A stretch of 64,000 bases of DNA from Balanoglossus misakiensis (Eukaryota; Animalia; Hemichordata): the NCBI GenBank assembly GCA_040954595.2, contig CM082594.2, forward strand, positions 1,134,247 to 1,198,246, read 5' to 3'. Positions 36,930-60,943 of the stretch are shown here, piece by piece. The translations under genes and the position numbers were made by a program. The first letter of the stretch is position 1; every line of letters begins with the position of its first letter. Under the pieces are notes generated by a model. It was given only the letters and a program-made list of their open reading frames with translations. It made no database searches and was not told the origin of the DNA.

Positions 36930-36954
36930 CGATAAGGGTCGAAGATAAGCAAAC

Positions 36955-39675
36955 ATGGCGCCGTTATGGGATTCCTTCGTGAAGGAAGTGAAGATACTTG
37001 TTCGAGACCACAGAAACAGGTTACCGTCTGGTCTAAATGACCGGCGAGTGGTGTGTAACATGGTCGAGAGAACTGTCTCTATGATACGTTACACACTGAA
37101 CATAAGAGAAGCGGTGCAGCACCATGTAATGGCCGTTTCTGTGCAGGACATTCATTTGTTACTGGATTGCTTGAACTCTGTACATATTGCGTTGCAATCT
37201 GTTTTGGAAATATGGAGCTCTAACTCTGGAAACAGTCCTCGCTCTTGTGTTACGATTGGGAATGTTAATACGTCTCGTGATGTGAACTGTGGACTATCTG
37301 AGACTGAAACTATTCGAACTGGTGAACCTGGACGTCCACCATATGATATTGATGACAAGGTACAATTATTTATCGAATACGGGTTCAAAATGAAAGATAT
37401 CTCAGAAATGCTCCAAATATCTCGTCAAACATTATGGAGAAGATTGAAATCATTAGGGTATGATTTCACAGATAAGTACAATCCCATTAGTGATGCAGAT
37501 CTTGACATGCACATACGCAGAATCAAGGAATCGACTTTTAAGCATTGCGGAGAAAGAATCGTGGAAGGTATTCTGAGATCTATGAAAGTTTCCGTTCAAA
37601 GACAGCGAATAAGAGAAAGTCTCCAGAGGATTGAACCTCTTGAACGAGCCCTGCGTTGGCCACTCTTGAGAATGAAAAGTAAAAGGCATGGTGTGTACAA
37701 TGTGGCGGCAGCACAAAGTTTATGGCATATTGGTAAGAGTTTACATTACACAAAGTTATTATGATAGATAGTATGTACGTACATGCATGTAATGTATGTA
37801 TGTATGTATGTATGTATGTATGTATGTATGTATGTATGTATGTATGTATGCATGCATGCATGCATGCATGTAAATATGTATGTATCATGTATCTATTTAT
37901 GTATTTATCTATCTATGTAGGTGTATGCGTGTCAGTGAAATCTTAAAACCACTGCATGTTTTCAAATGGAATTATATATACGCACGAACTGGTCAAAATC
38001 TCGTGGTATACCATGGCTGGGGGTGTTTTATTGCTATTATATTATGCCAGTATATTGAAACTTTGCATAAAACATTTTAAAAAGGCATTTTCTTTGACTA
38101 TGATATATGACTGTGGTATATGGCTAATATACCATGGTCACGTGTCGTGTCTCGACCAATCAAATAGCGTGATTTACACCATCAATATACTGGTATAATA
38201 TAATACTCAATATTGAACAGTTGTCATAAAGATGCTTAAGTTAGACTCAGTCTGATACAGATACATCTTCGGTTTCGAGTAACTGAGAGTAATTGTGCAT
38301 CAAGAGCTGATTTGTATAGTTGTAGTTTAGGAAACCCTATTTAGAATGAAAAATATTTTGATCACATTTGGCCGTGTTCATATTTAATTTACATTCCAAT
38401 CAATTATGCACTTCTGAGGTACATATTTGATGTGATAAAAAAAATAATTTTCCACATCTAAATATAACTTTAAAGTGCTAAAATGTTGTACATGTCATAC
38501 ATTGAGCAATTGATCATGTGTACTCGTCTTTCAGCATATTCTTTTTATACTTAAGACTAATTTGGGTGAGGAAGCTGGAAATGCAGTTTTATGAAGTGGG
38601 CCTGCATCCCACGAAACCAAAACTGAATGCCAAACTAAATCTGAAGCTAGCTTAAGCATCATTGCCATGATGCTGTTTTTCCATGTTGATTTTATTTCTT
38701 AGTGAAACATTTACCATAATTATGTATGTGGATTGCTGCTTTTCTGAATATTGAACTTAATTAATAAGTGTGTGATATATAGTCCTCCTTGCCAATAGAA
38801 TTGATCTACGTGTACATTTATCAAGAGTTTCATAAGGCTTAATACATATTTCATTTTTTGCAGATGGCCTGGAAAAATTACAAAGATGGGGACTATATGT
38901 TCATGGTGGAATAGATGGGTATTCTAGAGTAGTTGTCTACCTCATTGCTGCCAACAACAAGATGGCATCAACTGTTTTAGATGGTTTCCTTGGTGCAGTG
39001 CAAGAATATGGCATTCCGTCCCGTGTCAGATCTGATTATGGGATGGAAAATACAACGGTTGCAGCTTTCATGCTGGCACACCGTGGAGACAACAGAGGTT
39101 CACACATTGTTGGATCATCAATTTATAATCAAAGAATTGAACGATTACATCAAGATACATTTAAATGTTGTTTGGAATACTATCGTGATGTTTTTCTACA
39201 GATGGAATGCCAGGGTCTTTTAAATCCTGATAATCCTATAGAGATACTGTGTCTTCATTTTGTTTTTCTTCCTCGTATAAATTATTCACTGACAGTTTTT
39301 AGGAAAGGCTGGAATGAACATAGATTGCAAACAGAACACAATTTGAGTCCGAATCAGCTGTGGCTGCAAAGTGTTACTGCATTCAAAAATTCTGATAAAA
39401 CTGCTATCAGAGAACTGTTAGATCCAGAGAACATAGATTATGCCACTTATGGAGTGGAAACTGACATCACTGTCAACAGTGATGAAGAATACATCACTGT
39501 CAACAGTGATGAAGAATCAAATAATGAAATGCTATCACCAACATTTGAATTGTCAAATTATGAGCAATGTTTTCAGACTCTACAGGAAAGGATAGATCCA
39601 TTAGCAGCAAGTGATGAAAAGGGTATTGATATTTACACTAGAGCATGTTCCTTAATCAGACAAATGTCATTGTAA
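36955..39675 (+). CDS. IS3EU-type integrase-core DDE transposase, 2 exons (36955-37732, 38864-39675), 529 aa, intact frame
   Basis: Spliced product: HTH region (GRPPY..KDISEMLQISRQTLWRR), then LWHI|DG..HGGIDGYSR, PSRVRSDYGMEN, NQRIERL. GT-AG intron in phase 1; 778+812 nt = 530 codons including the stop. Confidence 0.92.
37790..37885. repeat. (TATG)n/(CATG)n microsatellite in the transposase intron
   Basis: Direct reading of the sequence. Confidence 0.95.
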
Positions 39676-39890
39676 TATCCATAAAGAAATACAATCACCT
39701 CCAATTTACACATACCGGTTACCCATGTATGGTTACAAGGGTGTGTATAAATCTTTTGATAACCATGATGAAGTGGCACACTTCTTTTCACATGGCTACC
39801 TACTGAAAACAAGAGATATTAGTGGCTAAATTTCCACTTTCCATGCTGGTAACTGTGGCTTAATTTGCATCGGAGACTGTATACCTTTAA

Positions 39891-40230
39891 AGCCCCTATA
39901 GCTGCCAAATTTTGCATATTTTTTCCACAGTAAAATACTTCAAATATATTCCCTATCCTCTAAAATCCTCACCATTAAGCCATATTACTTGCATTTGCAT
40001 CAGTTTGTCATCTCTTGGCGACATATACAAATATAGCCTCGTACTGTTTGTATGGAAGCTGATTAAATCGGTGCGGCACCGTTTTCATACATGGCGTTTT
40101 CAGATCGCTACATACAGCCATGATCAGGCATCGATAAGATGTTTGTTTATACCTAACAGCAAGCTTATTTTGATGGACCAATTTAAATTAATTCATGAAA
40201 ATAATGCAAAAAGTGGCAGCTCCAGAGGCT
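39891..40230. mobile_element. Kolobok-like MITE (TTAA TSD)
   Basis: ttaa|agcccctatagctgcca ... tggcagctccagaggct|ttaa. Confidence 0.7.
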
Positions 40231-41321: not shown

Positions 41322-41716
41322 ATAATTGTTCACCACCTCTCTGCTCTTGATGCAATCTGGTTAAAATCAGATAAGTTTGGCATTGTCTTTGGCTGTTCTG
41401 TTCTCTGTCTTTGACTTGGCTGTTCTGTTCTCTGCCGTGGCTGTTCTTGGTGTACGTGCCACACTACATCATTCTGAACCTATGCCATAGAACATCTAGT
41501 TTTGGCAAATGGATCCATTCGACCAATCACAGAGCGGCTTTCCTACCGCTTCGGAACTGGCCACGCGCTGGAAACTAACTTCTATTGTTCAAGTTTGTTT
41601 GTTTTTCCACACCTCCAGTTTTCTAAACAACCGCTCTGATAGTCTCGGTTACCCAGACGCCTTTGCTCTTCCGATGCTCTCCAGAAAAGGGTCTGGGGAA
41701 ATACTATTGAAAGCTT

Positions 41717-43792
41717 CCCTTACCAAAATCGGGTGCACCCGAAAGGCACCCAAAAGAACACACCCCGGGTGCACCTTAGGTGGCACCCGAAACACACCCC
41801 TCAGAACACACCCGAAACCACCTTAAATTGGTCACTTTAGGTGTGTTTCGGGTGTACAAAACAGGTGCATTATAGGTGCACCCGAAAGGCACCCGAAATA
41901 GAGCACACCCGAGGTGCACCTTAGGTGGCACCCGAAACACACCCGTATGATATGGTATGGATGCACCCGAAACGCACCCGGAACAACATACTCCGGGTGC
42001 ACTTTAGGTGGCACCTAAAACACACCTGAATGATATTATGGATGTATTATGCAGTTGCTGCAGTGGCTCATACACACACACACACACAATGTGAAAAAAA
42101 CAGCCAATACAATTTTTGTTAATAAAACTAAAAGTCAATATATTGCTAATTGTAAACTTAATAAAGTTCTTTTGTACAGTACAGTAAAAATAAAATGATG
42201 GATAAAATGATAGAGCTACATAGTACAGTTCGACTAGCTATGTACAAACACTTGTAATCTACACTAAGTTCGATGGAAATGTGGTCACCGTGATCAGAAT
42301 ATAGTCAGTGGTTTCACAGCAATAATTAAGTTATCCGAGGCATGCTGCTTCACATTTCTGTCCGGGAACGATATTATGCAACGTACATGCAATGTCCACG
42401 CCATTTTGAATGAACCATTCTCGCGGATGCTCGTCCATGCATCATCGTCCTTAAATGGCGATCGAGATTTCTTGTAATGAGTACGGTCAAATCAACAGCT
42501 ATCAATGGACACACCACAGGAGTAGGTGTTCGTTCAAAACGCGTTTGGTACTTACAATCGTCCGAGTCGTATCAAAACGCGATGTGTTTGAATGCGACTG
42601 TTTACTGACATCGAGAATGGCGGCCACATTGTTATGACCGCGTCGACCGATGCGCCTGATGAACGTACGTGACTGACCTCCCTTGTCATGATCTTACGTG
42701 TTTTGATATCCGCACGTCATCTCTGACGCCTAAAGTAGTCGGAACAACGAAACGATTTCACAAATTTTGCTAAAACTGCGTCGAAATGGCTTTCCGACAT
42801 TGACTTCCGTGTCTACGATGTGGACTTGCCAGTATGACTGTTTAATGACGTTATTATGAATGGACCAATCCGGTTACGTATGTTAATGACGTCCCGGGTC
42901 AAAAGTCAAGTATTGTACTTCGGCCAGTACAACTTGCAAGGGTTGTAGTTTGTGGTGAATAAATCGTGGAAAACTTTTATTAAAATCGTGATCTCCAAAA
43001 TAAAGAGACAGAACTTGATTTTGTGCGATATTCCAGTACATATAAATGGACAAAAAAAATGTTTTTTATTCCTTGGAGCTGTTAATTATTTAATAAAATG
43101 TATTCAGAAATTTTCCAACTTCAACAGATGATATAATTTTTCATCAACTAACTGATGTGAAAAAGTTGCTAAGTCTAAAGCGGGTGTGTTTTGGGTGCCT
43201 TCTCGATGTGAAAAAGTTGCAAAGTCGAAAGCGGGTGTGTTTTGAGTGCCTTCCCTATGTGAAAAAGTTGCAAAGTCTAAAGCGGGTGTGTTTTGGGTGC
43301 CTTCTCGATGTGAAAAAGTTGCAAAGTCGAAAGCGGGTGTGTTTTGGGTGCCTTCCCGATGTGAAAAAGTTGCAAAGTCGAAAGCGGGTGTGTTTTGAGT
43401 GCCTTCCCTATGTGAAAAAGTTGCAAAGTCGAAAGCGGGTGTGTTTTGGGTGCCTTCCCGATGTGAAAAAGTTGCAAAGTCGAAAGCGGGTGTGTTTTGA
43501 GTGTCTTCCCTATGTGAAAAAGTTGCAAAGTCGAAAGCGGGTGTGTTTTGGGTGCCTTAACGGCCAGTGCTGATATCAGAAGGTGTATTTCGGGTGCACC
43601 CGTAAGACACCTTTACAGTTTATGTTGTAGGGGTGGATTTCGGGTGGGTTAGACCACCCACCCAAAACCCACCTCATCTTACAGTGGTGTGTTTTAGGTA
43701 GGTTACGGGTGGGTCTAAGTGCTATTGGTGTGTTTTGGGTGTATTTTAGGTGCACCCGAGGTGCACCCGAGCACTCGGAAATTTGGTAAGGG
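41717..43792. mobile_element. Non-autonomous EnSpm/CACTA-like element C (CCC..GGG termini, 2-bp TSD TT, subterminal ggtgcacccg repeats)
   Basis: tt|cccttaccaaa ... tttggtaaggg|tt. Removing it restores gaaagctttgtaaaac, which matches the opposite TIR of element B. Confidence 0.85.
43154..43558. repeat. 51-bp minisatellite, ~8 copies, inside element C
   Basis: Unit gatgtgaaaaagttgcaaagtcgaaagcgggtgtgttttgggtgccttccc. Confidence 0.93.
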
Positions 43793-44377
43793 TTTGTAAA
43801 ACAAAATGGCCGATGTCAGGATTTTGATCATCGCCTGATTGGCTGAGCTGTCAGTATGACCCGGGTCACTGCAATAGTTTCGACAATCGTCTACTAAAGA
43901 TATTTCGTATAATTTCTCCAACAATGCTAACAGAGGACGCCTTTTGCCTTTCGCATCAACCAACAAGTACCGGTCTCTTGATATGAAGATATGACAAATA
44001 ATCACACATTGTCGAGAATCAGTGACCAAGGTCATACTGACAGCTCAGCCAATCAGGCGATGATCAAAATCCTGACATCGGCCATTTTGTTTTACAAAGC
44101 TTTCAATAGTATTTCCCCAGACCCTTTTCTGGAGAGCATCGGAAGAGCAAAGGCGTCTGGGTAACCGAGACTACCGCTCTGATTGAGATCTTCTATGGCA
44201 TAGGTTTAGATGTAGTGTGGGCGTCTCTTTTTAACAGAACAGCCAAGAATCAGCAAAAGTAAAGATGGCGCCCAACACTACATCTAATTTTAATCAGATT
44301 GCTCTTGATAATTGTACCTGTCTGGTGAGACATAATAGAAAGTCAAACTAGTCTCTGTCCCATTGTTGACCTCAGTT

Positions 44378-47300
44378 TTACATGATATGTCTGTGTCCCT
44401 TGATCATCAGTTTTGCCAGTCGGTCAGTCTGCGTCTCTTTGTTCAGAGAACCCAACATCACAGTCTGTGCATGTGTATGTGCAGTTTCCACATGGCCAGT
44501 TGTCTGTGTATTGACATTCACGCATTTCATAGATATCATCTCTGTAGTACTATCTGTCAGTTCCACATGATCAGTCTGTATCCCAATGGTTGTGTGTGTT
44601 TTGGGATCATCAACCCACTGCCCACTCAGCTGTTCTTTGACACTGTGTATGTCTTCTAGCTTTACAAGTAACAGTTCTGTCGTGTTGGATGGATTACAAA
44701 CCCGATCATCGATGCTATCCTTCATGTAGTCGATAATGCGACCACAAAGTCCTGCATTTAACTTCACACGCAATCCAGGCGGTACAGCCTCTATCAGGGC
44801 CAGGATCTCACCATCAGTACCACTTTCAAACTGGAACCCCTGCATTAGCAACTTGTTGCACACTATTTGTTTCAGATCTTCAGATGTGTATGGCTGGAAG
44901 ATCCATGGTTCCCTGAACCTTCTTAAGAGACCCTCATTAGCTGACAGCAACTTCTCCATTTCCATCTTATATCCTGCAAGAACAAATACTGGGGTATCTC
45001 TCATACAGTCACCAGTGAGATAGTGCATAAGGGTGTTTATTATGTCAACTCCAAAGTCCTTCGTAGATTTGCCTTTATATAGTGAGTATGCCTCATCAAT
45101 AAACAGCAATCCACCAGCTGCCTCTTCGATCTTTTTCTTCATTTTCTTCTCTGATTCTCCCAGATACTGAGCAACAACATTATCTCTCTGTACTTCAACA
45201 ACTTTCTCTTCCTTTAATATACCAACATCATATAAGCATCCTGAAATGGCAAAGCACAAAGTAGAACCATGACTAAAAATGCTTTTGAATTTACTGCACT
45301 GATTGCTGTATCTAGAATATAGAAATTACCAGAATAGGTTTTGACTTACATGATATGGAAATACCCCCCTCACCACTTCACTGTGTACATTTCATCTAGT
45401 TATATGACAATTGTGCGTGTGTATTCAAAGACAAACATGGAAATTATTGGAGAAGCAATGGTAATTTTAGCGACAATTTTATGACCCCCCAAAAAAAGGA
45501 AATTGCTGAGTCATCCCTTCTCCCCACTTTAGATCTTCATGGTAGAAGTTTTTAGATGAGCTGACTCCAAGACTCAAGCCGGTCTGACATAAATTTTATT
45601 TTTGCAGATATTGATTTTGATTCTCATTCTGAATTATTTCTGACAATTTCAAGAAAATGACAATATTTTATGGTGGTTTCTTGCATTTTTACACACAATC
45701 CTATGGTATAAGATAACCATGTACAGCCTATGCAAAGTGGAAAGAAACTAGGAATACTCCCTAAACTCTCTATTTATACATTGAATAAAACTTGATTTCC
45801 TATTATGGTATCATCCTTTATATTGCACCTGGAACAAAATATTAAGTAATAAAAATGAAGGTAAAACTAATTTTCTCACAGTTCTGTGAAAGTGGTACTC
45901 TGTGAAATGAAAACTGTACCATTAAATTACGAAGGGTGTTGACTTTTGCATTGTGTTTTTTGAAACATTTGAGAATTATAGGTTAAAGCCCCAGTATTTC
46001 TCGTGTGTATCCATTTTTCATCATCGAAAAATGCCCGTTTTTCCTGTACATTCATCATGGAATACTACATAATGAAGATATAAGAAAGTTTTGGGCAACT
46101 GTAGCTATATGCAAGCTGTAAATATTGCCCGTAACACTTGCCCGTAACACGGGTTTGTTTACAACGGAAATGTTGTACATCTCGATCAGCAAACGTGCCA
46201 CTTTGATATTTGATGTCAGACCATTTTCAGATTTGATCTGGTTCCATCGACTGATTTCTCCCATATAGTTATCTTCCCAGAATTTCGCCGATTTAGTGCG
46301 CATTTCTTCGCTGAGGTGCTAGATTTGGGGCGACCAAACCTCTTCCGCATAGATTCACATTTGAGTGCGCATGCGCAGTAGTCACGTGTGTCAACAGAGC
46401 CTGACTTTCTGTCCGGACAGAAAGTCATTCTTCACTCGTTATATTGTAAATTGTATGTGTTTATGAACAGAGCTGGGCATGATAACTGTTAGATTCAGAA
46501 TCAATTATCATGTACTTTTAGAAATTGAAGATGCCGTTTCAAACAAAATTTATGCGAAAACGAGAAATACTGAAGCTTTAATATTGAAAACAAATTTACA
46601 GCTTTAAAGTTTAATGAGTTCTATACATTGTAACAGATTGAATGGACACAAAAAGAAACATACCTGCCAGCAACCTAGCAAACATAGTTTTGCCTGTGCC
46701 TGGTGGCCCATAAAATAATAAATTTAGGGGCTCCTCTTCTTGTTTCTTAATTGTACTTCGGGCTTTGTTGTTTATTGCGCGGATGGCTAGCTTTTCTACT
46801 TTCTTCTTAATATCCTCCATCCCAACAACAGATTTTAGTCTTCTCCCAACTCGTCTTCTGACCAATTCTCTATTCAACTCTTTTAAGGCTGCATTCACAA
46901 ACACCTCTGGAGGGGGGGGCAGGAGAATTGAGGGGGGGGATTTGAAAAAATTGAGGGTATGTAAGGGGGGGATTTGAAATAATTTAGGGACTGAAAGGGG
47001 GGGACTTGAAAACTTTAACAACTAAATATTTATTTTGAGTCCACAAAAATGCAGTTTCGCACCCTTTAATTTACAAAATTTTCTAATGTGGGAGGGAGAC
47101 ACCCCCTCCCACACCCACCCCCTCCATTCATCAACACCTTTCAATCATTGACTGGTTTATCTAGTGACCCAGGTCAGGGGACTTGCCCCACCCCATGATA
47201 ACTTTGAGCGGCGACGGTTAAATTTGTCCTCCCCAACATACCGGTAGTTGAGTTAATTTGCTTTTGCCGGGTTCATTAAAATGCAGCTTTGAGCTCTGTA

Positions 47301-50300
47301 TTTTAGAAAATTTTCTTACGTGGGAGGGGGACACCCCCTCCCAAACCCACCCCCTTCAATTCTCGGTGTACAATGTCTCCCAACACAGAATACAAATATA
47401 TGTACTTAAAAAATAAAAACAATAAAAACAATGTTCAGTTTTAAACCCACTGATGAGGGGAAACATCAGTTTCAAATTCTTTTCATGGGAGCGCTGTTTT
47501 TCTTTTTACAAGATAGATAGGTGATGTGTTTTGCTCTGTGAAAGAAAATGGGGGGGGGGATTTCAAAATTTTGGCAGTTCGGAAGGGGGGGATTTGAAAA
47601 TATTGGCAGTTCGGAAGGGGGGCATGTGAAAATTAGCGGTAAAAAAAATTGAATTCTCCCGCCCCCCCCCTCCAGAGGTGTTTGTGAATGCAGCCTAAAA
47701 GGAAAAAAAAACACGTCCTGTCATATCAACTCTGTCCCTAAGCAGTACAGAAGGGAAATCTTCTAAATTAACAACATCAAATATAGAAGTCACATATTAT
47801 CATTTTTCCATGAGAAACAAGCCATTTATCCCTCCATTTTCAACAGCAAGGACAAAAATGGTTTGTTATCATATGATAAATATTTACCTAATCCACAACT
47901 TATTTGTCTCAAGTCAACAGAATCCTGAAGTCTGCAGGGAAAATAAAAGAAAAAAGTGGTAAAATAGTACATGTACACACTCAGTGACATTATGAAGCTT
48001 TGATTACGACAATAACCTTTACCTCTTGCCAGAATGAAGAAAAACATTGGACATATCATGAAAAGTCTTCACACATACAGATCTGTGGTAACATATTAGA
48101 ATGCTAGACAATGTCGAATGAGAATATTTGATACAGTAAACACATATTGCCTGATTACATGGAATGTGCAAAAAAATGAAAGATGTTATGTTCTGTCCTT
48201 TTACATACAACTAAAACTTTTGTTTGGATGTTTTGTCACCAGGAAAATACCTTTCTTTAGCAGATATCCTCACAGCATCACTCAGCTTTGAAGGGTAAGG
48301 ACTGAACATTTCGGCCTTTGAGTACACAGCTATTAGTGAGTAATTAAGGAAGACAAACAAAACTCTATTTTCCATTTTAGAATGACTACATGTTCATCAC
48401 TTTTACAGCCTTTAAAGTTTTCTTTGAAAGTACTGATATTCTATTTATTTTCAAAGTGTACGGTAGTTTAATGTTTACACAAGGACTGTGTAATAGTGAT
48501 CACCTACAAACAGACATTAACTGCAGAGCTTGTATCAATTTCTAAAATGGACTGCACTGAGACACTTGTGAAATACATCAAAAAATTATTGTGTACTGAT
48601 CACTTTATCCACTATAAAATCAACAGTTTTTTGTAACATGTTACATGAAGTAACAAGAAACGTGCGTCTGTTCTGGTTTCAAGAGAAAAAGGATATTGAC
48701 ACTGTCTTGTTGATTGCCTCCTTGTAGATACTTCAGAATGGCAGAAGTCATGATAAATTCAGTTACATGGTCATCATCATACATGACCCCGAACAGACAA
48801 AAACAAATGAGATGTGTTAACAATAGCAGGGAATTTGATAAGTTTTAACACATTAATATAACATGCATAGAGACTCAAACTTTATCTTTAATTGTAATTT
48901 GTCAAAGAAAGAAATTGTAAAATTATATCAATTATCACTTTTCTGCAGTCAATTACATACATGTTCTCATGAGCACCATCAATTAAGAGGCTTCACAGAC
49001 TAAATTTCACTAAAACTGATCTGTTATTGATTATTCATTCTTTTCAGTATTTAACAGCTTTACACACGAAATGATGACAAAGAAGAACATAGCAAACAGA
49101 CTATATTTACCATGTATCTGCCTCCTTCTTTACTAACAACATTATATGGCCCCTTATTTCAGAATGCACAACTATGGCAGTGACTTCCATATCAGGGGGT
49201 GACCAGAATGCAGGGAAATCTTGTGGAGACAACAGTGCTTCAGCAGTCATCGACCTCGGAATTTTTATACTCCTATTGTCCTGTAATATCACAAAAGCAT
49301 CAAACTTTTCAAAGACTAATAGTATACAATTTAAATTTATCCTAAATCATTTGCTCTACCTAGGATAAAAGAAGCTACTTATTCTTTTGGTTGACTGTAT
49401 TTAGAAAAATGTAGAAGACAATACTGCACTGGCCCCAGCTACTGTATGTGCATTGATAAGCATCCTTGTGTCTCATCTCAGTTGTCAAATCATTCATGAC
49501 CTAAAGCTTATGCCCTATAGCAACTACAGCAAAAGTCACATGTTGTGGTGCAATGAATTATACTTCACTTTCTCTTGATAATTAACATTTTTATGATCAG
49601 TCTACAGAAAGTATGAAACCTACCTTATTGCCATAACCATCATTTCTGTGAATCCCCAAACATATTAAATTGGGTTCTGTTACCCAGAAGTCAACATGCT
49701 TTACGCTGTCATCTATAATGAAGAAAACAAACAAAATGATGTTCCTTTTCCTCCCTTCTCCCTAAAGTAGAGTAAATGACAATCACTTTTTCATTTAAGG
49801 GTTTCTACTTCTGTAGTATCTCTGGGGGTAAATTGATACCGTGACAATGTCAATATTTATACAGTGACCCCTCAAAGAGAAATTATGAAAATTAACTATA
49901 TTTTCAGTTCTATATTTGTAACAGTGAAACATATAGCAAAGTAACTAAGTGTACATGTATAATCAAATAAATAAAAAACATACGTTCAGAAGGTTCAGGT
50001 GCTCCGTCTATGCTGTCTTTGATTTGGACTTTCACATTAGAAGGAATGTCTCGCCAACAATAAATCATTCTCTCTGTGAGAAAATGATTTAGCATACTGT
50101 CAATTGATGATCCTGGGTTTAGTTGAAGAACGTACCAGGGGTGTATCAAGGTAATGTATAGGAAAACTGAATATTAAATTGACAATCATCAGCAAAATCA
50201 ATGATGTCAGTATCATTTGTTATATTTTTCCCTATAAAATGATCACACCCTGAAAAGGTCTGCCCAATTTAGTTTCAAATTAATGCCCACCCCTACTTCT

Positions 50301-53300
50301 TGAAAACACATTATCTCACCATCTGTTAGTTACTACCACAGGGCAGCAACCTTTTTACTTTATATATGCGTGATAAAATCACCATACAACCATTCATAGT
50401 TTCTGAGTTTGTGTACAACAGTATTTATGGATATATATGCACTTGAACACTGGTCTCGTCAACATGAAGAATCTAGTTTGTTACAAAAATATATACTTAA
50501 GTCAGGAAATTAGCTGTAACTTTTCGATGTTTTCAGTACAGGTACTTTTGGTTTGTTTATCTCCTGCAGTTTTTTGTTCAAATCCTTATAGTATGAAGAA
50601 ATGCCCCACATTCAAAAATTTAATTAAAGTCTGGACAAGAATTTATTTGTCAACAATAACAATGGTCAATGTTACGTTACACACATACAGCCTATGTTGA
50701 TTAGTGCAGTACTAGAAATGGCATGCTGTTGTTAGAGGACCACAAAACTGCAATTGATTCACTGATCAAAAATACTGAAAATAGAGCAAACAGTTACAGC
50801 TTAAATCCCTTATAACAGCAGGGTCAAACAAAGGATATGACGATAACTGTCGTCTTCAAATTCCTCATCCTCGTAAATCCAGATCCGTCTCCGTGTACCT
50901 GCCAAAGTTGTCTGGATTACCTGTGCTAAATGCTATAAAACATGAAACGAATGAAAAAATCTATCAATTGGAAGAAAAAAAATCGCGTCAAGGACACGGT
51001 GGTCCCATTGAGGGATTACACAGGAAAATGTCTACACCAGAGTACATGGCCATATACAGACAGACAGACAGACACACACACACATAGAGAAAGAGAGAGA
51101 TCAAAGAGCAAACACTGACTGACCCATAAGCTGCCAATGGCATATGTACTGTACATACACTAAATAGAACAGCTGGCCTCTTTAAAACTTAGCCAGTTAT
51201 GTTATCATGCAGGAATTTGCTGTGTGTATAAATATCAGGAGGGGGTTCCTGCCAAATTACAAAGAACTCAATAAAGTAAATACACACACTTTGCAAAGCA
51301 ATCTGACCAGTAGTTCTTGAGTCACTGAGTTTTGACCAAATTCAAATTTTTCATTTGAACAAACTCCCATTTCAGCCCAGCCTGCATCTGCACACCAAAT
51401 ATCAAGGTGATACACGCAGCGGTTTTCAAGTTTTTTATGTGGACAGACATACAGACATCCATCCATACATACATACATACATACAGACGCAACCAATCCC
51501 ATAAGGTCCCATGGTATATATGTACATATAAATCAAATTGGACCTAAAATCTAAATCTACAGGCATGGTTTGTGGGGCCCAAGTGGTTCCCACGGAATTC
51601 CAAAGCTGTATCTGAGCCAGATAATGAGATATCAGAAAGATGGTCAAGGTCACCTAAGGTCACCAAAAACTTTTTAAATAAATTTTTGCTGGTTCATGTC
51701 CGACAAACTTGACACAGTTACATTATCAGAACAAATGTAAGACTGACCTAAAATCAATTAACACAGACAAGATTGAAAATACTGTACCTCATTTTCTGTA
51801 CACAACACTTTCAAGGTTTCGTCCAACACTTCTGCAGGGTCATACCCACCGCCAGCCATATCCCGTGGCATACACTTGAGGAAATGGCTTACTGCTGTTT
51901 CGTATTCTGCCAAACAATCCTCTTCACCAATCAAAGATATCATCTAGATTTAAATGGGAATGATAGATGAAAAAGTGTTTTATGAAAATTCCTGATATTA
52001 TATTTTTGGCTTAATAATGTTGACACTACCGTATACTGATATCAAGTATATAACCCATCCTATGGCATAGAAGAAGGTAAATTGTTATATGCTGTGAGAG
52101 ACAACTTTGCTCACTTCAGTAAAATTAGAAGTGAGAAGCTATGACTGCACACAATAACTATTTTTTAAAGAATACAGTCATAAGCTTTAATCTTTTGTAA
52201 TGGAGAGTATTTGTTAAGTTAATTTTGTAATTGTAATTATATGAAAAAAAGTATAATACATCAAAATACCTGTCAAAGGTGACATATTACCTTGAATGAA
52301 TACAAACCAATTCACTGCATGTACTGACAGAAACATAACGTCAAGAATAATAACAAATAATGAATTATCATGAAAATTGCGAAAACAATTAAAAAATCAT
52401 ATGTCACTCAGTAGGTCATCGTAATGCCCATTTAGTCTGCAATACCTAAAGACAATTTGCATAACTTGAAATGAAAAGTTTGACATACCTCAATGACAGC
52501 TTCAATACATGGACCACCAGAAACCACCTCAGATAAACATTCCATAATTGGTTTTATGCATGCAAGAAGGTGTATCACCGCATTGACTGCACAGTAATTG
52601 CCAGGGTTTGGTAGACCTGTTGTGAGAAACACACTACATATAGTGGAAGCTAGTAATTTGTTTCAATTATCAACAAGGCAATATCCCCGTCACCATCCTT
52701 TTAAAGTTTCTTGTTTTCTTGGAAAGAAGGGCACAGACATTTCTAACAAGCCAAGAGTGCATGATTGAAATTACATGTAATGGCAGAATGGTTAAAGGTC
52801 AGAAGTTGAGGGGTCATAATCTGGTAAGTATTAAGGATTTGATCACACTGAGATCAACTGATTTATGCTGGAACATAAGAAATTAGGGGATCACAGAGTG
52901 CTATCAAACCTTAGGTTTTATTTTATTGAAGATCAGCACAGCTAAACTACTATTTGGATTCTAGTACATAATGGACATTTGAACAATATATGCATGTGCA
53001 CCAACTGATCTTATCTTGCAAATTCAAGTAAACTTTACTGAGGGCAAGAACGTCATTTTTTTATATTCAAAAGTCATGACTCAATCTACATCAGACTACA
53101 TCTCCCTTGATCATGCATGTTTACTTTTTCTGACAAGGATGAATGTGTCTTTGCTGAATAAGTACTTAGGTTCACATTACCGTAATCTACAAGCTGCTCT
53201 GCACCATCAGTACAAATCATGTCTCTCAGTGTGCACTCCTACAAATAAGAAAATCATGGCATTAATTGTCTTTATGTGACTTTTGTCAATGTCACTTGTA

Positions 53301-54703
53301 TGTTAACACAATTCGACCAAAGGGGTTCACCTGTTGACATGTTAGCACCCCCTAGGAATTTGTCAGGGGGGGGGGGGCAGGACAATATTCAAAGAAATAG
53401 TTTCCATATTTTCATTTTTATCTTTCATAAATTTTGAATTGAAGCAGCTGTATTAAAAAATTGTGATGCGTACAGTTGATCAAACATAAACATACTCACT
53501 CACTCACTCACTCACAAGCACGTCATCAGCCTGAGCACAGCTCTCTTATTGAAACTAAACAACATGAGAAGACTTATTGAGCAGGATACTTACATTCTTT
53601 GGATTTCCTTTATGTCTCTTGGCAGTACTTTCCATTTGGTGGTGTTGTCTACCAATTGGACTCTGTCCAGTGGTTGATTGAGGTCCATTGCATAGGGTGT
53701 CATGAGTTGTACTTGTTAATCCCATTGGTTCACTTGATGGAGATGGCCTGTCTTCACTCGCCTGATTGGATACACTGTCTGGGAAACTTAATGGCACTAG
53801 CTGCATTGTTGTATCATCATGTATTGTACTTGTTAATCTCATTGATTCACTTGTTGGAGATGGCACAGTGTCTTCAATGGCCCGATTAGATGTGAAACTT
53901 AAAGGCTGTATAGTTGTATCATTTTCTGTTTGAAGAGGTTGGACAACGGTAGTGCATGCATATCTTTCATCCTCATGGCTTTGCAAAGTAGTAGTATTTC
54001 CTTCAATCTCAGTGGTGACTTCATCAAGTACCATGGATGGGGACTGGAGGGACGTGTCTGCAGTCACTGTACTGTTATATGTATCTACAACATTTGAACA
54101 CCTCTGATAATGCTGAATGCTGGCAGTTTCCTGGGTGTGGTCATGTTCTGAATCAAGCATGACATAGATGGTTTTATTCAAACTCCTTGTATCCCATACT
54201 GCTTTTGCCGTATATTTGAATGAGCGGGAAACGATTCGTAACTGGACTGAACCCTTGCGTGGAACATCCACAAACTTGAATTTTCCCATATAGTTTGGAT
54301 ATGCAAGGCTTATCATGTTCTGTATTTCTCGCTCCACCTGTATATCATTCCATTTACTTTCTAAGCAAATGTCACCTTTGAAAAGCCAGTCTCCATCACA
54401 GTTATGTACAGTTCCTGTTGTGTCCATCATGACTGCTTCGTCATATTTTAGCACACACAGTTTCATATGGTACATTCTTGATTTGGGTAAATATACAGCT
54501 GTGGATCGAGGAAATACAGCAGTTTTTCTTGATGTGTCCCTAGGATTTTGTGCGCGGCTGGTGTTATGTGGTGTGTTCTGTAATTGTTGTACTTGAGCTG
54601 GCTGCCTTCTTCCCCTAAATAAATTGTTTACGGCTGTTCTTACTTCAAGTGTGTCCATTGAGTCCAATGTTCTTTGTATTTCTGACCTTTGTGTATTATC
54701 CAT
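44378..54703 (-). CDS. Transposon cargo gene (~1100 aa predicted): N-terminal unknown domain + S/T-rich linker + USP (peptidase C19) deubiquitinase + CbxX/CfxQ/SpoVK-type AAA+ ATPase; this copy is probably damaged
   Basis: Exons: 54703-53594, 53238-~53125, 52616-52489 (GLPNPGNYCAVNAVIHLL), 51943-51788 (YDPAEVL), 50920-50848, 50166-49984, 49712-49624 (PNLICLGIHR), 49280-49111 (AIVVHSEIRGHIML..W), 48788-~48660 (YDDDHV), 48329-48251, 47931-47888, 46879-46664 (GPPGTGKT), 45240-44378 (AQYLGES, LLFIDEAY, AGY, NEGLLRRF). Most junctions are phase-consistent; those near 52.7-53.1 kb and 48.66 kb are unresolved. Confidence 0.78.
45987..46577. mobile_element. Kolobok-like deletion derivative in the last intron of the cargo gene
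   Basis: ttaa|agccccagtatttctcg ... cgagaaatactgaagct|ttaa. Contains an ORF remnant (MGEISRWNQIKSENGLTSNIKVARLLIE). Confidence 0.75.
46887..47695. mobile_element. PIF/Harbinger-type MITE (second copy), inserted at a 3' splice site of the cargo gene
   Basis: taa|ggctgcattcacaaacacctctgg ... ccagaggtgtttgtgaatgcagcc|taa. Confidence 0.9.
51285..51550. repeat. Short interspersed repeat ending in a (CATA)n tract (relatives at ~19010-19280 and, inverted, ~63620-63950)
   Basis: Shared cacaccaaatatcaaggtgatac ... cagacatacat motif. Confidence 0.65.
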
Positions 54704-54929: not shown

Positions 54930-55160
54930 CACAGGGGACTCTCCCTCCGCAATTTTGTTTGTTTGTTTGTTGTTGTTGTTGATGATGATGATGATGATGA
55001 TGATTTTTGGCATAATAAACAAATACATATTTCTTTATTAATAAATATGGTTTGTTGACATGTAAGTGTTAGGGTATTATCATCATCAACAACAACAACA
55101 ACAACAAACAAACAAATAAACAAACAAACAAACAGAATCGCGGAGGGAGAGTCCCCTGTG
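54930..55160. mobile_element. P-element-like MITE (CA..TG termini, 7-bp TSD ctgttac) with inverted microsatellite arms
   Basis: ctgttac|cacaggggactctccctccgc ... gcggagggagagtcccctgtg|ctgttac. Confidence 0.85.
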
Positions 55161-55641
55161 CTGTTACATCACTCCAGCGGCGGGAATTTAGCTACCAGGG
55201 CTGTGTGTTGTTAACGGCTACGCCTCCAATCACAGCCCTGCTAAGCTACATAGCCAAACCTGGCGAAACTCAACGGATTTGTTGCGGTATGGTTTCCTTA
55301 CCAAAAACGGCCGATTTCGAACTCAAAACGTGCGTCGATCTTCGTCACACAGCCCTGTCACGCAGAGCTAACTATATGCGAAAACGATGCGAAAAGACAC
55401 AACTGAACTTTTATACTTCGGAAATAGTAGAATAAGAAAGTTCACTCGAAAACATGATTTTTTAAACATGATGCAATCCATGCAAAATAACGACTTGTCA
55501 TGCACTGCAGCTAGCCACGGTTAAAATAAACTTAAATATAACATACAGATGATACACACCTTTTGTGGATGTCGATTGATAACGATGATGCCCAAAAGAT
55601 GCTTCGGAGTTCAGTCCCACGTATCTCGACGCCTAGCAGTT

Positions 55642-57116
55642 GTTTGTGCGTTTCCCCTTTCTTTTCTCTTCTTCAATTCAACTTATTTTCAGACTCTGTT
55701 TTTTTTTTTCAAATATTACCCAGACTCCTCTACCGAAATCTCTCACTTTTTTTTTTCAGCCAGGATTGTTCACTTTTTTTTTTTTTTTGCGCATGCGCAT
55801 TTATTCCCCAGGATTTCTCACTCATTTTTTTTTCGGCGCATGCGCATACGCTATTCTTTCAAATGCGTCCGGGTTTTTTTCAAGTTGTTAAAGACTATTA
55901 TTTATTTTTACAACTGAATGCTCGTTTTTTTAAACACGCTTGTTTTATTTTTTGGATGACAAATATACCATTTTTTACAACTTGGATCTGCCTGAATATT
56001 TTGGGAGACAAATGTGCCTATATATTTTTTTTTCAAATTTTATATCGTGTTTTTTTTTCTCAAATTGCCTGTTTTTCTGGGTGACAAATGTTCCTATATT
56101 TTTTTTTTTTTTGCAAATTGCTCTGCGTTTTTTTTTTCAAATTGCCTGTTTTTTGGGGGGTGACAACTGTTCCTATATTTTTTTTTTGCAAATTGCTCTG
56201 CGTTTTTTTTGTTTTTTTTTTCAAATTGCCTGTTTTTTTGGGTGACAAATGTTCGTATTATTTTTTTTGCAAATTGCTCTGCGTTTTTTTTTTCAAATTG
56301 CCTGTTTTTTTGGGTGACAAATGTTCCTATTTTTTTTTTTTTTTGCAAATTGCTCTGCGTTTTTTTTTTAAATTGCCTGGTTCTATTTTTTTTTTTTTTT
56401 TTGCAAATTGCTCTGCGTTTTTTTTAATTGCCTGCTTTTTTGGGTGACAAATGTTCTTATTATTTTTTTTTTTTGCAAATGCTGTGCGTTTTTTTTTTCA
56501 AATTGCCTGTGTTTTTTTTTTCGGTGGATTATAAATTTGCTTATTTTTGCAACCTCAATGCATCTGCGTTTTTTTTAAGTGGCCCGTTAGTTTTGGGGTG
56601 ACATGAGTGCGGGTTTTATCGGTGACAAATATCTCCGTTTTTTTATGGCTAACATGTTCGTGTTTTTTCTATGTTTGCCTGTGTTGTTTGTTCTGGGGGT
56701 GTGCATTTTTTTCAAGTTGTAGTCTCTCTCTCTCTCTCTTTTTTTTTACAAAGAGTGTTCTTTTTAATACTTTGTGTGTATTTTTTGTGGGGGTGAAGTG
56801 TGCGTTTTTCGTGAAAAATGTGCGCCTCTTTTTTTGTCACAAATGAGTGATTTTTTGAGCAACTGCCTTGTGGACGTATTTTTTTCGGTAAGCTTGGTGG
56901 GGTTTTTTTGACAACAGGTGACATTTTCTTCTGTGTGTGTTAGGTTTTTTTTTTTGTTTTTTTGTTTTTTTACTCCACGACGGATTACTTTTTACACTCG
57001 TTGTTTTTTGAACCACCAATCAGTTTTTTGTGTGTTTTTTACGTATTTTTTTAAAAAAAGACATTAATTTTCTATAAAATAATGATAAATAATTTTGAAA
57101 CACTTGGCGCGCCGTA
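55642..57116 (-). repeat. Right TIR (~1.47 kb) of the giant element
   Basis: Reverse complement of 35634-36929 with extra subrepeat copies. ORFs 35731(+) and 57019(-) translate identically at their starts. Confidence 0.95.
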
Positions 57117-57155
57117 GTCTGACGACTATGCCTCGAAGCAAAAGACACAGCCGAC

Positions 57156-60100
57156 TAGGGCGCGCCAAGTGTTTCAAAATTATTTATCATTATTTTATAG
57201 AAAATTGATGTTTTTTAACAAAAAAAATACGTAAAAACACAAAAAACTGATTGGTGGTTTAAAAAACAACGAGTGTAAAAAGTAATCCATCGTGGAGTAA
57301 AAAAAACAACAACAACAACAAAAAACCTAACACATACAGAAGAAAATCTCACCTGTTGTTAAAAAAAAACCACCAAGCTTACCAAAAAAAACGTCCACAA
57401 GGCAGTTGCAAAAAAAAAATCACTTATTTGTCACAAAAAAACCACGCGCACATTTTCCACGAAAAACGCACACTTCACCCCCACAAAAAACACACACAAA
57501 GTAGTAAAAAGAACACTCTTTGAAAAAAAAAAGAGAGACTACAACTTGAAAAAAATGCACACCCCCAGAACAAACAACACAGGCAAACATGAAAAAACAC
57601 GAACATGTTAGCCATAAAAAACGGAGATATTTGTCACCGAAAAAAACCCCCGCACTCATGTCACCCCAAAACTAACGGGCCACTTTAAAAAAACGCAGAT
57701 GCACTGAGGTTGCAAAAATAAGCACATTTTTAATCCCCCGAAAAAAAACAGGCAATTTGAAAAAAAAAACCACAGCAATTTGCAAAAAAAAAAAAAAAAA
57801 TAGGAACATTTGTCACCCAAAAAACAGGCAATTTGCAAAAAAAACGCAGAGCAATTTGCAAAAAAAAAATATATAGGAACATTTGTCACCCAAAAAAACA
57901 GGCAATTTGAAAAAAAAAACGCAGAGCAATTTGCAAAAAAAATATATATAGGAACATTTGTCACCCAAAAAAAACCAGGCAATTTGAAAAAAAAAACGCA
58001 GAGCAATTTGCAAAAAAAAAATATATATAGCAACATTTGTCACCCAAAAAAAACCAGGCAATTTGAAAAAAAAAAACGCAGAGCAATTTGCAAAAAAAAA
58101 ATATAGGAACATTTGTCACCCAAAAAAAACAGGCAATTTGAAAAAAAAAAAACAGAGCAATTTGCAAAAAAAAAATAATAGGAACATTTGTCACCCAAAA
58201 AACAGGCAATTTGAAAAAAAAAAACACGATATAAAATTTGAAAAAAAAATATATAGGCACATTTGTCACCCAAAATATTCAGGCAGATCCAAGTTGTAAA
58301 AAATGGTATATTTGTCATCCAAAAAATAAAACAAGCGTGTTTAAAAAAAACGAGCATTCAGTTGTAAAAATAAATAATAGTCTTTAACAACTTGAAAAAA
58401 AACCCGGACGCAATTGAAAGAATATCGTATGCGCATGCGCCGAAAAAAAAAATGAGTGAGAAATGCGCTCCAAAAAAAAAAAGTGAGAGATTTTGCTAGA
58501 GGAGTCTGGGTAATCTTAAAAAAAAAAACAGAGTGTGAAAATAAGTTGACTCGAAGAAGAGAAAAGAAAGGGGAAACACACAAACCGTCACACAGGACAA
58601 ACAACAGTCTCCTCATCGCCGAGGCGTACGTGTGATGATATGACAAGTGTTTACGTCTGTGAGGTGGTGTGTATGTGTCGGATAGAACGCGAGTCGACTA
58701 GAATCCGAGTCGACTGACGGTTACTGTGGTGGACGCGAATATATTGTCGCCATTGTGGGATTCCTTCGTGAAGGAAGTGAAGCCACTTGTTCGGGACCAC
58801 ATATGACCGGAGCGTTGCGTTTAACATGGTCGAACGAACTGTCATTATGAACAACTCCTGCTGTAACCTGTGATGCTGAAACGTACAATAACTTTCCATA
58901 TTCTTTTGTACAGTACACAGAGTTTCAACGCGGATGACGCGGAAACGATCAACTATAAATTATGGACTGAGCGACTCCTTTGGGGTATTTGACCTTTTAC
59001 CAGCCAAATGTAAACAAACGATTTGCGGTGAATTCATACACATGACAACGATTTCCCGAAGGTCATTCATACCTCACTTTGAAAAATACAACAAATAACA
59101 AACAGTTTCTAAATAAAATATTTTTTTCCAATATTTATAAGTTGTCAATACTGAGCTGATTTTTTGTATAGTTCGCTAGTACTGCACAGAAGACAGTATT
59201 AGTTGTGGGCACCATGCCAACTCTTGGGCAACTTTCAGTTCTGCCGTTTGGGGTTTAGATTTGTCTTACATCACAGATGATTATGCTACAAATTTCACGA
59301 TTTCTGTAGACCAAATCTAGAATAGCAAACCGCGGACGTAGTGCCAGTGGTGTCATGTTTGACTGTGTGGTATCATGACGGTATCATGTTTATGTGGTCC
59401 CGAACAAGTGGCTTCTCTTCCTTCACGAAGGAATCCCACAATGGCGACCACATATTCGCGTCCACCACAGTAACCTTCAGTCGACTCGGATTCTAGTCGA
59501 CTCGCGTTCTATCCGACACATACACACACCATCTCACAGACGTAAACACTTATCATATCATCACGCGTACGCCTCGGCGATGAGGAGACTGTTGTTTGTC
59601 CTGTGTGACGGTTTGTGTGTTTCCCCTTTCTTTTCTCTTCTTCGAGTCAACTTATTTTCACACTCTGTTTTTTTTTAAGATTACCCAGACTCCTCTAGCA
59701 AAATCTCTCTTTTTTTTTTGGAGCGCATTTCTCACTCATTTTTTTTCGGCGCATGCGCATACGCTATTCTTTCAAATGCATCCGTTTTTTTTTTCAAGTT
59801 GTTAAAGACTATTATTTATTTTTACAACTGAATGCTCGTTTTTTTAAACACGCTTGTTTTATTTTTTGGATGACAAATATACCATTTTTTACAACTTGGA
59901 TCTGCCTGAATATTTTGGGTGACAAATGTGCCTATATATTTTTTTTTCAAATTTTATATCGTGTTTTTTTTTTTTCAAATTGCCTGTTTTTTGGGTGACA
60001 AATGTTCCTATTATTTTTTTTTTTTTGCAAATTGCTCTGCGGTTTTTTTTTTCAAATTGCCTGTTTTTTGGGGTGACAAATGTTCCTATATTTTTTTTTT

Positions 60101-60943
60101 GCAAATTGCTCTGCGTTTTTTTTTTCAAATTGCCTGGTTTTTTTTGGGTGACAAATGTTCCTATATTTTTTTTTTTCAAATTGCTCTGCGTTTTATTTTT
60201 TCAAATTGCATGTTTTTTTTGGGGTGACAAATGTTCCTATTTTTTTTTGCAAATTGCTCTGCGTTTTTTTTTCAAATTGCCTGGTTTTTTTGGGGTGACA
60301 AATGTTCCTATTTTTTTTTTGCAAATTGCTGTGCGTTTTTTTCAAATTGCCTGGTTTTTTTTTTCGGGGGATTAAAAATGTGCTTATTTTTGCAACCTCA
60401 GTGCATCTGCGTTTTTTAAAGCGGTCCGTTAGTTTTGGGGTGACATGAGTGCGGGTTTTTTTCGGTGACAAATATCTCAGTTTTTTATGGCTAACATGTT
60501 CGTGTTTTTTCTATGTTTGCCTGTGTTGTTTGTTCTGGGGGTGTGCATTTTTTTCAAGTTGTAGTCTCTCTTTTTTTTCAAAGAGTGTTCTTTTTAATAC
60601 TTTGTGTGTATTTTTTGTGGGGATGAAGTGTGCGTTTTTCGTGAAAAATGTGCGCGTGGTTTTTTGTGACAAATAAGTGATTTTTTTTTCAACTGCCTTG
60701 TGGGCGTATTTTTTGGTGAGCTTGGTGGTTTTTTTTACAATAGGTGAGATTTTCTTCTGTGTGTGTTAGTGTTTTTTTGTTTTTTTTGTTGTTTTTTTGA
60801 CTCCACGGTGGATTACTTTTTACACTCGTTGTTTTTTAAACCACCAATCAGTTTTTTGTGTTTTTTACGTATTTTTTTTGTTAAAAGACATCAATTTTCT
60901 ATAAAATAATGATAAATAATTTTGAAACACTTGGCGCGCCGTA
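57156..60943. mobile_element. Non-autonomous 3.8-kb derivative of the same IS3EU-type family; arms 57156-58803 / 59391-60943
   Basis: Termini tagggcgcgccaagtg ... cacttggcgcgccgta. Flanks gccgac / cccgac (6 bp, 1 mismatch). Confidence 0.9.

Follow-up and report, generated by a model that had tools for sequence, protein, structure and literature searches.

Element A and its transposase

The window analysed here, a stretch of 64,000 nucleotides from Balanoglossus misakiensis, contains a cut-and-paste DNA transposon, Element A (35634–57116; 21,483 bp), that carries two convergent genes: a transposase on the plus strand and a 13-exon cargo gene on the minus strand. The element begins with TACGG at 35634 and ends with CCGTA at 57116, and is flanked by a 7-bp target-site duplication whose two copies (35627–35633 and 57117–57123) agree at all seven positions. 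The chance of such a match is about 4e-5 at a fixed place, a value that a target preference would raise, since GAC is present in all four element flanks. Terminal inverted repeats of 1.3–1.5 kb lie inside both ends and match at 1284 of 1312 aligned bases (97.9% identity). The left repeat (35634–36947, plus strand) contains internal tandem repeats of about 75 bp and stops 7 nt 5' of the transposase ATG; the right repeat (55622–57116, minus strand) lies upstream of the cargo gene, about 0.9 kb from its ATG. Two other pairs of ends were considered and rejected. A 360-bp inverted pair (34985–35346 and 39885–40221) straddles the true left end and has related pieces near 16 kb, and pairing the left end with 60943 gives 2 mismatches in 6 bp versus 0 in 7 for the chosen pairing. 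For the neighbouring element B, the flanks are identical at five of six positions at a duplication length of 6 bp.

The transposase is encoded by two exons (36955–37732 and 38864–39675) and comprises 529 amino acids without a stop. Exon 1 contains a helix-turn-helix (HTH) region, the intron interrupts the first catalytic Asp (D260), and exon 2 encodes the integrase core with D317 and E352, 35 residues apart, giving a DD35E signature. In a profile search the protein matches PF24764 (rva_4) with an E value of 8.8e-67.

IS3EU/GingerRoot elements are described, in the excerpts from which we took our criteria, as having TA..TA ends with TAYGG..CCRTA, an integrase-like DDE transposase and a second gene in the opposite orientation (PMC10045372, PMC6839031, PMC12730594). 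On its ends, 7-bp duplication, inverted repeats and integrase-related DDE transposase, Element A is of the IS3EU/GingerRoot type, and we annotate the cargo gene, which lies opposite the transposase, as its second gene. The 7-bp duplication is longer than usual: duplications in the group are usually 6 bp, with 6–8 bp accepted, and 7 bp occurs in 5 of 77 GingerRoot elements (PMC6839031). Element A also differs in its size (21.5 kb versus 3.9–12.9 kb for GingerRoot), in the length of its inverted repeats (versus 100–150 bp) and in its second gene, which encodes USP and AAA parts where IS3EU/GingerRoot elements have alpha-kinase, TET/JBP or HECT; in fungal IS3EU, an alpha-kinase gene is described opposite the transposase (PMC12730594). 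The first host list given for IS3EU includes an acorn worm (PMC11934779).

Exon chain of the cargo gene and its splice sites

The cargo gene starts with an ATG at 54703 and encodes 1056 amino acids. Of its splice sites, 11 of 12 acceptors are AG and 11 of 12 donors are GTA. Three gene models from the acorn worm Ptychodera flava together cover 12 of the 13 exons: P0271 joins exons 1–4, P0270 joins exons 6–13 and P0122 consists of exons 12–13. These models are computed, and P0270 starts in what is an intron in the window and ends inside the AAA domain.

Exon 1 (53594–54703; aa 1–370) encodes a folded domain at about aa 73–185, then a linker rich in Ser and Thr. Exon 2 (53181–53238; aa 371–389) is identical to P0271 at 10 of 19 residues. 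The preliminary description had the gene start at 52616, which is instead the edge of the third exon, the gene beginning two exons further up. That description also missed the resulting 389-aa part before the Cys-box exon, the transposon setting, the acceptor of exon 9 and the insertion before exon 12. Exon 3 (52489–52616), with the USP Cys box, is identical to P0271 at 34 of 43 residues and matches Pfam UCH positions 2–30 with an E value of 0.076; exon 4 (51788–51943), a USP box with D467 and E470, is identical at 26 of 52. Exon 5 (50899–50932; 34 nt) joins the two halves of the gene. It is canonical and in phase, and is the only exon without homologue support (1 of 11 residues identical).

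The following exons were compared with P0270: exon 6 (49984–50073; 14 of 29 identical), exon 7 (49624–49712; 23 of 30), exon 8 with the His box (49111–49280; 42 of 56), exon 9 with D616 and the end of the USP (48655–48788; 22 of 33), exon 10 with the USP end and linker (48251–48329; 17 of 26), exon 11 in the linker (47888–47931; 8 of 15) and exon 12 with the N-terminal part of the AAA domain and Walker A (46664–46879; 59 of 72). Exon 13 (44378–45240) encodes the pore loop, Walker B, sensor 1 region, Arg finger, lid, an 81-aa tail and the stop, and is identical to P0122 at 163 of 206 residues. Exons 10 and 11, already proposed as small exons leading towards the AAA domain, proved canonical and phase-matched, and for neither did any of 1000 shuffles reach the score against P0270. 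Because P0270 connects the USP palm and His box with the AAA domain in one frame, all 13 exons, USP-like and CbxX-like, likely belong to one gene, in line with the fusion first suggested. The whole chain was found in no single database protein.

In the window's copy, exon 9 has GG instead of AG as its acceptor (48790–48789) and lacks a good donor. A linking junction near 48660 had been left unsettled in the preliminary description; several in-frame positions, 48655 among them, could be the 3' end of exon 9, and the window lacks a GT at the place of the P0270 junction. Exon 9, and with it the catalytic Asp, can therefore probably not be spliced. The triad that earlier looked intact is so in the DNA (C398, H600, D616) but probably not in any product of this copy. 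With the acceptor AG of exon 9 lost and no good donor at hand, a full-length product is unlikely.

A second change lies upstream of exon 12, where a MITE of 809 bp (46887–47695) with a TAA duplication has inserted 7 nt from the exon; a second copy lies near 22548–23352 (91.8% identical). The MITE displaces the pyrimidine tract of exon 12 but provides an in-frame acceptor at 46906, and we did not count it as a certain lesion since it supplies in-frame acceptors.

The window's copy might nevertheless be intact and make the full fusion, if the GG is confined to one allele or stems from misassembly, exon 9 ends at a weak donor in frame and exon 12 uses the MITE acceptor. Consistent with this, all 3171 coding bases are free of stops and frameshifts, the transposase is intact, the inverted repeats differ by only 2%, and the in-frame acceptor in the MITE end has pyrimidines at 17 of 18 positions. 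However, exon 9 is abnormal at both ends, the other 11 donors are all GTA where this one has no GT at the P0270 junction, and skipping introduces stops: loss of exon 9 leads to a stop at codon 629, and loss of exons 9–10 or 9–11 to a stop at codon 612. We consider an intact copy rather improbable.

Predicted domains of the cargo protein

In order, the protein has an N-terminal domain and a linker, then a minimal protease of the USP fold and an AAA+ domain of the CbxX/SpoVK/EccA clade. All the motifs reported earlier (Cys box, His box, YDD, Walker A, pore loop, Walker B, AGY and Arg finger) were recovered on the minus strand, and the 13 motif residues checked are all the same in P. flava. The Cys box has N393 as oxyanion Asn, 5 residues before the catalytic C398 (codon 52593–52591), as in P0271. 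H600 (codon 49148–49146) lies in the His box and D616 (codon 48778–48776) in the YDD of the next exon, both shared with P0270. The His box is present, with a wider spacing than the VVH..RGHI..W first given, the Trp lying 11 residues after GHI.

The pieces of the protease, scanned separately, score 13.0 and 15.6 bits against Pfam UCH, for which the gathering cut-off is 23.9, and UCH positions 148–239 match P0270 with an E value of 0.013. P0271 gave no UCH match in Pfam, and neither the Cys-box exon nor P0271 found a USP among PDB sequences. For the ESM Atlas model of P0270 residues 8–165, all six listed structural neighbours are PF00443 USPs with TM scores of 0.72–0.76, a comparison that covers the C-terminal half and sets predicted models against predicted models. 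These neighbours support a USP fold for the protease part, as the preliminary description had predicted. A single-sequence AlphaFold model of P0270 reached a pLDDT of 33, and Foldseek on it was uninformative. Like USP/C19 proteases (PF00443), the cargo protease has an N-x4-C Cys box followed by His and Asp in that order; unlike them, it is minimal (about 270 aa), with divergent motifs, pieces below the Pfam cut-off and no close relative outside P. flava.

The protease may not be a strict deubiquitinase; it could remove SUMO or another ubiquitin-like tag, or cleave its own polyprotein to free the AAA ring. Its motifs depart from the usual USP pattern, with His for Gln after the Cys box, Ile for Tyr after the catalytic His and only one Cys in the finger region, and the nearest named clusters by language-model features are short viral USPs. 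Ulp1 SUMO proteases are, moreover, described as common transposon cargo (PMC2836005, in part). The structural neighbours, by contrast, are ordinary eukaryotic USPs, and no cleavage site was identified. We regard activity outside ubiquitin removal as doubtful.

The USP domain lies about 45 residues upstream of the predicted AAA ring. In the AAA domain, Walker A (K761, 46691), the pore Tyr (Y795, 45166), the FIDEAY Walker B (D818/E819, 45097–45092), AGY (44974) and N.GL..RF with the Arg finger (R877, 44920) all fall at match columns conserved in 80 relatives; the lid position is Gly, found in 25 of the 80 relatives, 55 having Arg. The best PDB matches of exon 13 are EccA1 and CbbX (E values 3e-21 to 4e-20), and its profile matches are TIGR03922, TIGR02881 and TIGR02880. 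Motifs and matches support membership in the CbxX/CfxQ/SpoVK/EccA clade, which agrees with the initial assignment. The domain stays far below the NCBIfam CbbX/SpoVK/EccA equivalog cut-offs, exon 13 reaching 108.7 bits for a cut-off of 466.65, 98.2 for 422.95 and 90 for 459.25 (90–109 versus 423–467 bits), and exon 12 adds at most 38 bits. The cargo shares the clade motifs and pore-loop Tyr with the red-type Rubisco activase CbbX/CfxQ, SpoVK and EccA1 (PDB 3syk, 3zuh, 9lur), and differs from them in its animal host, its introns and its long branch. Around the cargo gene there is no Rubisco operon or type VII locus, its neighbours being the transposase and repeats, and a profile scan of exon 1 gave no TPR match.

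For the N-terminal domain, a single-sequence model (pLDDT 47) had several beta-grasp chains among its top rows, the best with a Z score of only 4.6, and Foldseek gave no match at an E value of 0.001. This hints weakly at a beta-grasp-like domain at about aa 73–185.

Relatives, origin and possible role

The Cys-box, His-box and AAA exons are 75–82% identical to P. flava, the remaining USP and linker exons 48–77% and the N-terminal linker 32%, a difference among exon classes that is significant even without the N-terminal linker (chi-square p 4e-5). We count this far stronger conservation of the catalytic exons as a probable sign of selection, one that rests on a single comparison because homologues were found in only one other species. 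Furthermore, P0270 and P0122 share a stretch of 104 aa with 100% identity and lie on different contigs (40.3 and 48.2 Mb), which we take as a likely sign of mobility.

Searches with the USP exons returned one protein each, both from P. flava, and none of the 268 other AAA proteins fetched carries a related USP. The AAA searches covered, among the matches listed, 120 of 324 hits in longer proteins and 150 of 16,224 in representatives; because both lists are dominated by bacterial proteins with several AAA domains, distant fusions could be hidden. The only AAA genes met in contigs from viruses, metagenomes and prokaryotes were distant ones (4 loci), several further scans of such contigs gave nothing, and phages had only distant AAA matches (7 records). 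A tree made by a quick method from 70 of 184 non-redundant AAA domains, the window and two loci leaves the window/P. flava pair alone on a long branch. The tree gives no supported placement for the pair. We do not claim a viral origin: giant-virus USPs are Atlas feature neighbours, but such proximity is no sign of transfer, and 12 spliceosomal introns interrupt the gene.

The gene could be a passive passenger, captured by the element from the host as one USP-AAA gene or as a pair of adjacent genes, now decaying and without a role in transposition. GingerRoots often capture pieces of host genes with introns (22 of 77 elements), and all copies seen here are incomplete or damaged; the captures in the excerpted survey, however, are fragments of 84–1654 bp, not whole 13-exon genes (PMC6839031). 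No parent gene appeared in the searches or the tree, the conservation of catalytic exons over linker is at odds with decay, and the layout is the same as that of other IS3EU second genes. A passenger thus seems a poor bet; if correct, it would still be an unusual domain architecture, of modest interest. That USP and AAA are two separate genes or products, their fusion an artefact of exon joining, is very unlikely: NCBI does split the P. flava copy on the other contig into P0271 (exons 1–4) and P0122 (exons 12–13, with a Met start), exon 9 has failing splice sites in the window and exon 5 has no support, but P0270 joins exons 6–13, the protein sequence of linker exons 10 and 11 is conserved, the spliced frame has no stop at the USP end, and the window's AAA part lacks a start at the place where P0122 has its Met, which is Leu in the window.

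We favour, with a probability of about 0.55, a transposon gene of 13 exons whose predicted product, a protease-bearing ring motor, would strip ubiquitin-type tags from a protein complex and dismantle it for the transposon, the window's copy being probably splice-damaged. Because transposase and cargo each start just inside a copy of the same repeat, each inverted repeat would drive the gene next to it. The AAA domain would form a hexamer and thread its substrate by the pore Tyr, as described for CbbX (PMC5437159). Six USP domains would then cut ubiquitin or a ubiquitin-like tag off the threaded substrate, the target being picked by the N-terminal domain. As target we tentatively place first the transposase-DNA complex of the element itself once insertion is complete; proteins of host silencing or repair that act where the element inserts are a somewhat weaker candidate.

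Tag removal is paired with AAA+ threading in p97/Cdc48 with its deubiquitinases and in the proteasome ATPases with Ubp6/USP14, and ClpX is the unfoldase that takes the Mu transpososome apart. In these systems the partners are encoded separately by the host and the AAA proteins belong to other clades, whereas the cargo would unite both activities in one transposon gene. It is conceivable, if speculative, that IS3EU elements have an exchangeable slot for a second gene, filled in this lineage with a single-chain, p97/ClpX-like deubiquitinase-unfoldase that removes a host ubiquitin mark from the transposase-DNA complex and dismantles the complex after insertion.

Second genes in IS3EU elements and ubiquitin proteases on transposons are both known already. 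In the excerpts of PMC2836005, OTU and Ulp1 proteases are carried by Ginger1, Mutator and Helitron, a Trichomonas transposase is fused to a C19 domain, and such ubiquitin/SUMO proteases were proposed in 2010 to help transposition. Element A resembles these as a DNA transposon with a ubiquitin-system cysteine protease, and differs in that its protease is of the USP fold, is encoded by a multi-exon gene of its own and has an AAA+ motor attached. We found no report of a USP-AAA fusion or of such cargo in the open-access literature; Repbase acorn-worm IS3EU entries may describe it. Two questions are open: how eukaryotic transposase-DNA complexes are disassembled after insertion, and why ubiquitin-system enzymes are found on so many transposons. 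A USP-fold protease with a CbbX-type motor in one gene beside an intact transposase would make both testable with one element. The cargo would also be an animal member of an AAA clade whose known members are mainly bacterial or plastid, and would add a USP that is minimal and divergent. Contig scans gave, besides one 19-residue match treated as chance (locus L005), one decayed related transposase with a HECT ligase facing it (locus L006).

The cargo gene and its two predicted enzymatic halves

The USP-AAA cargo gene is a real feature of the window. It is an animal gene, rich in introns and read from the minus strand, in which 13 exons joined by coordinates give 3171 coding bases and a 1056-residue protein with no internal stops. 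AG acceptors are present at 11 of the 12 introns and GTA donors likewise at 11 of 12; both non-canonical sites flank exon 9 (its acceptor and its donor). The preliminary description had reported an apparent USP (C19) protease fused to a CbxX/SpoVK-family AAA+ ATPase. Every motif that it named was found in this gene, and the gene start had to be moved two exons farther upstream, to 54703. The N-terminal domain (residues 73-185) is similar to unnamed eukaryotic clusters (score 0.90-0.91) and may conceivably adopt a beta-grasp fold. At the other end, the tail (residues 985-1045; 44381-44620, minus strand) carries four spaced QT motifs, which resemble binding sites for the dynein light chain LC8; this tail is absent from P0122, a related Ptychodera flava gene model.

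Exons 12 and 13 match the EccA (TIGR03922, E 2.9e-31), SpoVK (TIGR02881, E 4.1e-28) and CbbX (TIGR02880, E 1.5e-25) profiles, each with a score far under the family cut-off. Compared with 80 relatives, the cargo AAA retains Walker A, the pore tyrosine, Walker B, AGY and the Arg finger, and carries Gly at a lid position occupied by Arg in 55 and Gly in 25 of these relatives. With these motifs kept and EccA1 and CbbX as the top PDB matches, the earlier placement in the CbxX/SpoVK/EccA clade stands. Judged from its sequence, the cargo AAA is a member of this clade, yet not an orthologue of any named member; in a quick tree (73 rows) its sole partner is the P. flava protein, and the long branch that holds the two is not grouped with any other row with support.

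For the protease half, the Cys-box exon matches positions 2-30 of the UCH profile (E 0.076) and P0270, a second P. flava model, matches positions 148-239 (E 0.013), both under cut-off; these matches are weak, but in the correct order. For residues 8-165 of P0270, the structural matches listed for the ESM Atlas model are USPs in six of six rows (TM 0.72-0.76); among named clusters, those closest to it by features are short viral USPs. N393, C398, H600 and D616 are identical between the cargo gene and P. flava. The USP claim is upheld for the fold, through the modelled homologue, and the pieces scanned with the UCH profile stay under its cut-off; the cargo protease is predicted to have a USP fold, in a minimal and divergent form.

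A single gene or separate genes

Three P. flava models related to the cargo gene were found: P0271 (XP_070556665) spans the end of exon 1 and exons 2-4, P0270 (XP_070533303) exons 6-12 and the beginning of exon 13 in a single frame, and P0122 (XP_070556525) exons 12-13. Their exon junctions agree with those assigned to the cargo gene save after exon 4, where the end of P0271 differs, and at the 3' end of exon 9. Against a fusion stand the facts that these are computed models of partial extent, that two of them divide one copy between them, and that no homologue of exon 5 was found. The fusion claim is carried by P0270 and by the linker exons, which are conserved at protein level (0 of 1000 shuffles), and we put the probability that USP and AAA are fused in one gene, for the family, at roughly 80%. 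A related USP occurs in none of 268 other AAA proteins among the matches listed.

Transposon setting and proposed role

The preliminary description had overlooked that the cargo gene sits inside a 21,483-bp transposon, element A (35634-57116). The inverted repeats of this element (1.3-1.5 kb) are identical at 1284 of 1312 aligned bases, and its termini, TACGG..CCGTA, are flanked by a perfect 7-bp repeat. A two-exon, 529-residue transposase (PF24764, E 8.8e-67; catalytic residues D260, D317 and E352) begins just internal to the left repeat and points towards the cargo gene, with no further long ORF between them. Because termini, duplication, transposase and facing second gene match the marks of the group, element A is of the IS3EU/GingerRoot type. 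IS3EU, described as little studied and first listed from acorn worm among other hosts (PMC11934779), is reported to have TA..TA ends, with duplications that usually measure 6 bp (PMC10045372); element A shares such ends and differs in its 7-bp duplication, a length given for 5 of 77 GingerRoot elements (PMC6839031). TAYGG..CCRTA ends with an alpha-kinase opposite the transposase are described in fungi (PMC12730594), and Styx, a fungal element, has been proposed to descend from a two-gene IS3EU (PMC10853768). The closest relatives found for the window sequence are hemichordate, and P0270 and P0122 share 100% identity over 104 residues on different P. flava contigs, as expected for recent mobile copies.

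Second genes in IS3EU elements, and ubiquitin proteases on transposons, are already known. In the open-access literature, our search found no report in which a USP is fused to an AAA of the CbxX clade, nor any in which IS3EU elements carry one or the other; Repbase entries or paper supplements may already describe such a case.

Compared with P. flava, the Cys-box, His-box and AAA exons are 75-82% identical, the remaining USP and linker exons 48-77% and the N-terminal linker 32%, a pattern that points to selection on both enzymes. Other DNA transposons bear OTU, Ulp1 and, once, C19 proteases, a proposed aid to transposition (PMC2836005). At a further locus, L006 (10001-11679), a decayed IS3EU-type transposase, related to that of element A, is faced by a HECT ligase remnant (PF00632, E 1.3e-5), in the same position as the cargo gene opposite its transposase. 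From the conservation, these proteases and the L006 layout, we read the cargo gene by analogy as a working second gene of element A. The L006 record is titled as a bacterial MAG and holds animal-like DNA with introns and a retroelement piece.

The CbbX hexamer pulls a substrate tail through by its pore tyrosine (PMC5437159). By analogy, the cargo product would be an AAA ring carrying six proteases next to its entry, coupling tag removal with pulling. The p97 and proteasome systems couple these steps through separate proteins, whereas here both would lie on one predicted chain. The favoured target would be the transposase-DNA complex, followed by host silencing or repair proteins; that the cargo is a machine with which the transposon itself untags its insertion complex and disassembles it is a speculative and rather unlikely proposal.

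State of the window copy and neighbouring elements

Exon 9 has probably killed the window copy, because the acceptor there reads GG, the donor is abnormal and a transcript that skips the exon meets a stop at codon 629 or 612. The sole in-frame AG alternative, 48701, loses the catalytic Asp; at the point where P0270 exits the exon, the window lacks a GT, and donor candidates that keep the frame are weak or cost conserved residues. Were the GG an error or one allele, this conclusion would not hold. An 809-bp MITE (46887-47695), presumably PIF/Harbinger-like, lies 7 nt upstream of exon 12; its insertion lowers the acceptor pyrimidines from 15/18 to 8/18, and it brings an in-frame acceptor of its own (17/18). 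A second copy at 22548-23352 is 91.8% identical, and both have TAA duplications.

Only 39 bp from the right end of element A lies a 3.8-kb non-autonomous sister with the same ends (57156-60943), consisting of 1.6-kb inverted repeats (97.7%) around a 587-bp middle, with a 6-bp duplication (5/6 matching) and a piece of the transposase start in both arms. Within element A, a 2.5-kb insertion (41640-44173), which we take to be Academ-like, is bounded by identical inverted repeats of 77 bp with TAG..CTA ends, is flanked by a 9-bp duplication and is packed with 83-bp and 51-bp tandem repeats. The interval that separates the cargo ATG from the right repeat contains a small foldback element (54930-55160; 42-bp arms, microsatellite stems). 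Elsewhere, a very homogeneous satellite (86-bp unit, 142 copies, 99% matches) fills 1-12200, and a multi-exon RAG1-like transposase gene occupies 26278-32009 (minus strand), with a RAG1 importin-binding domain (E 1.1e-9), a RING finger, a DUF1280 core (E 3e-11) and C-terminal motifs that we assume to be RAG1/Transib-like.
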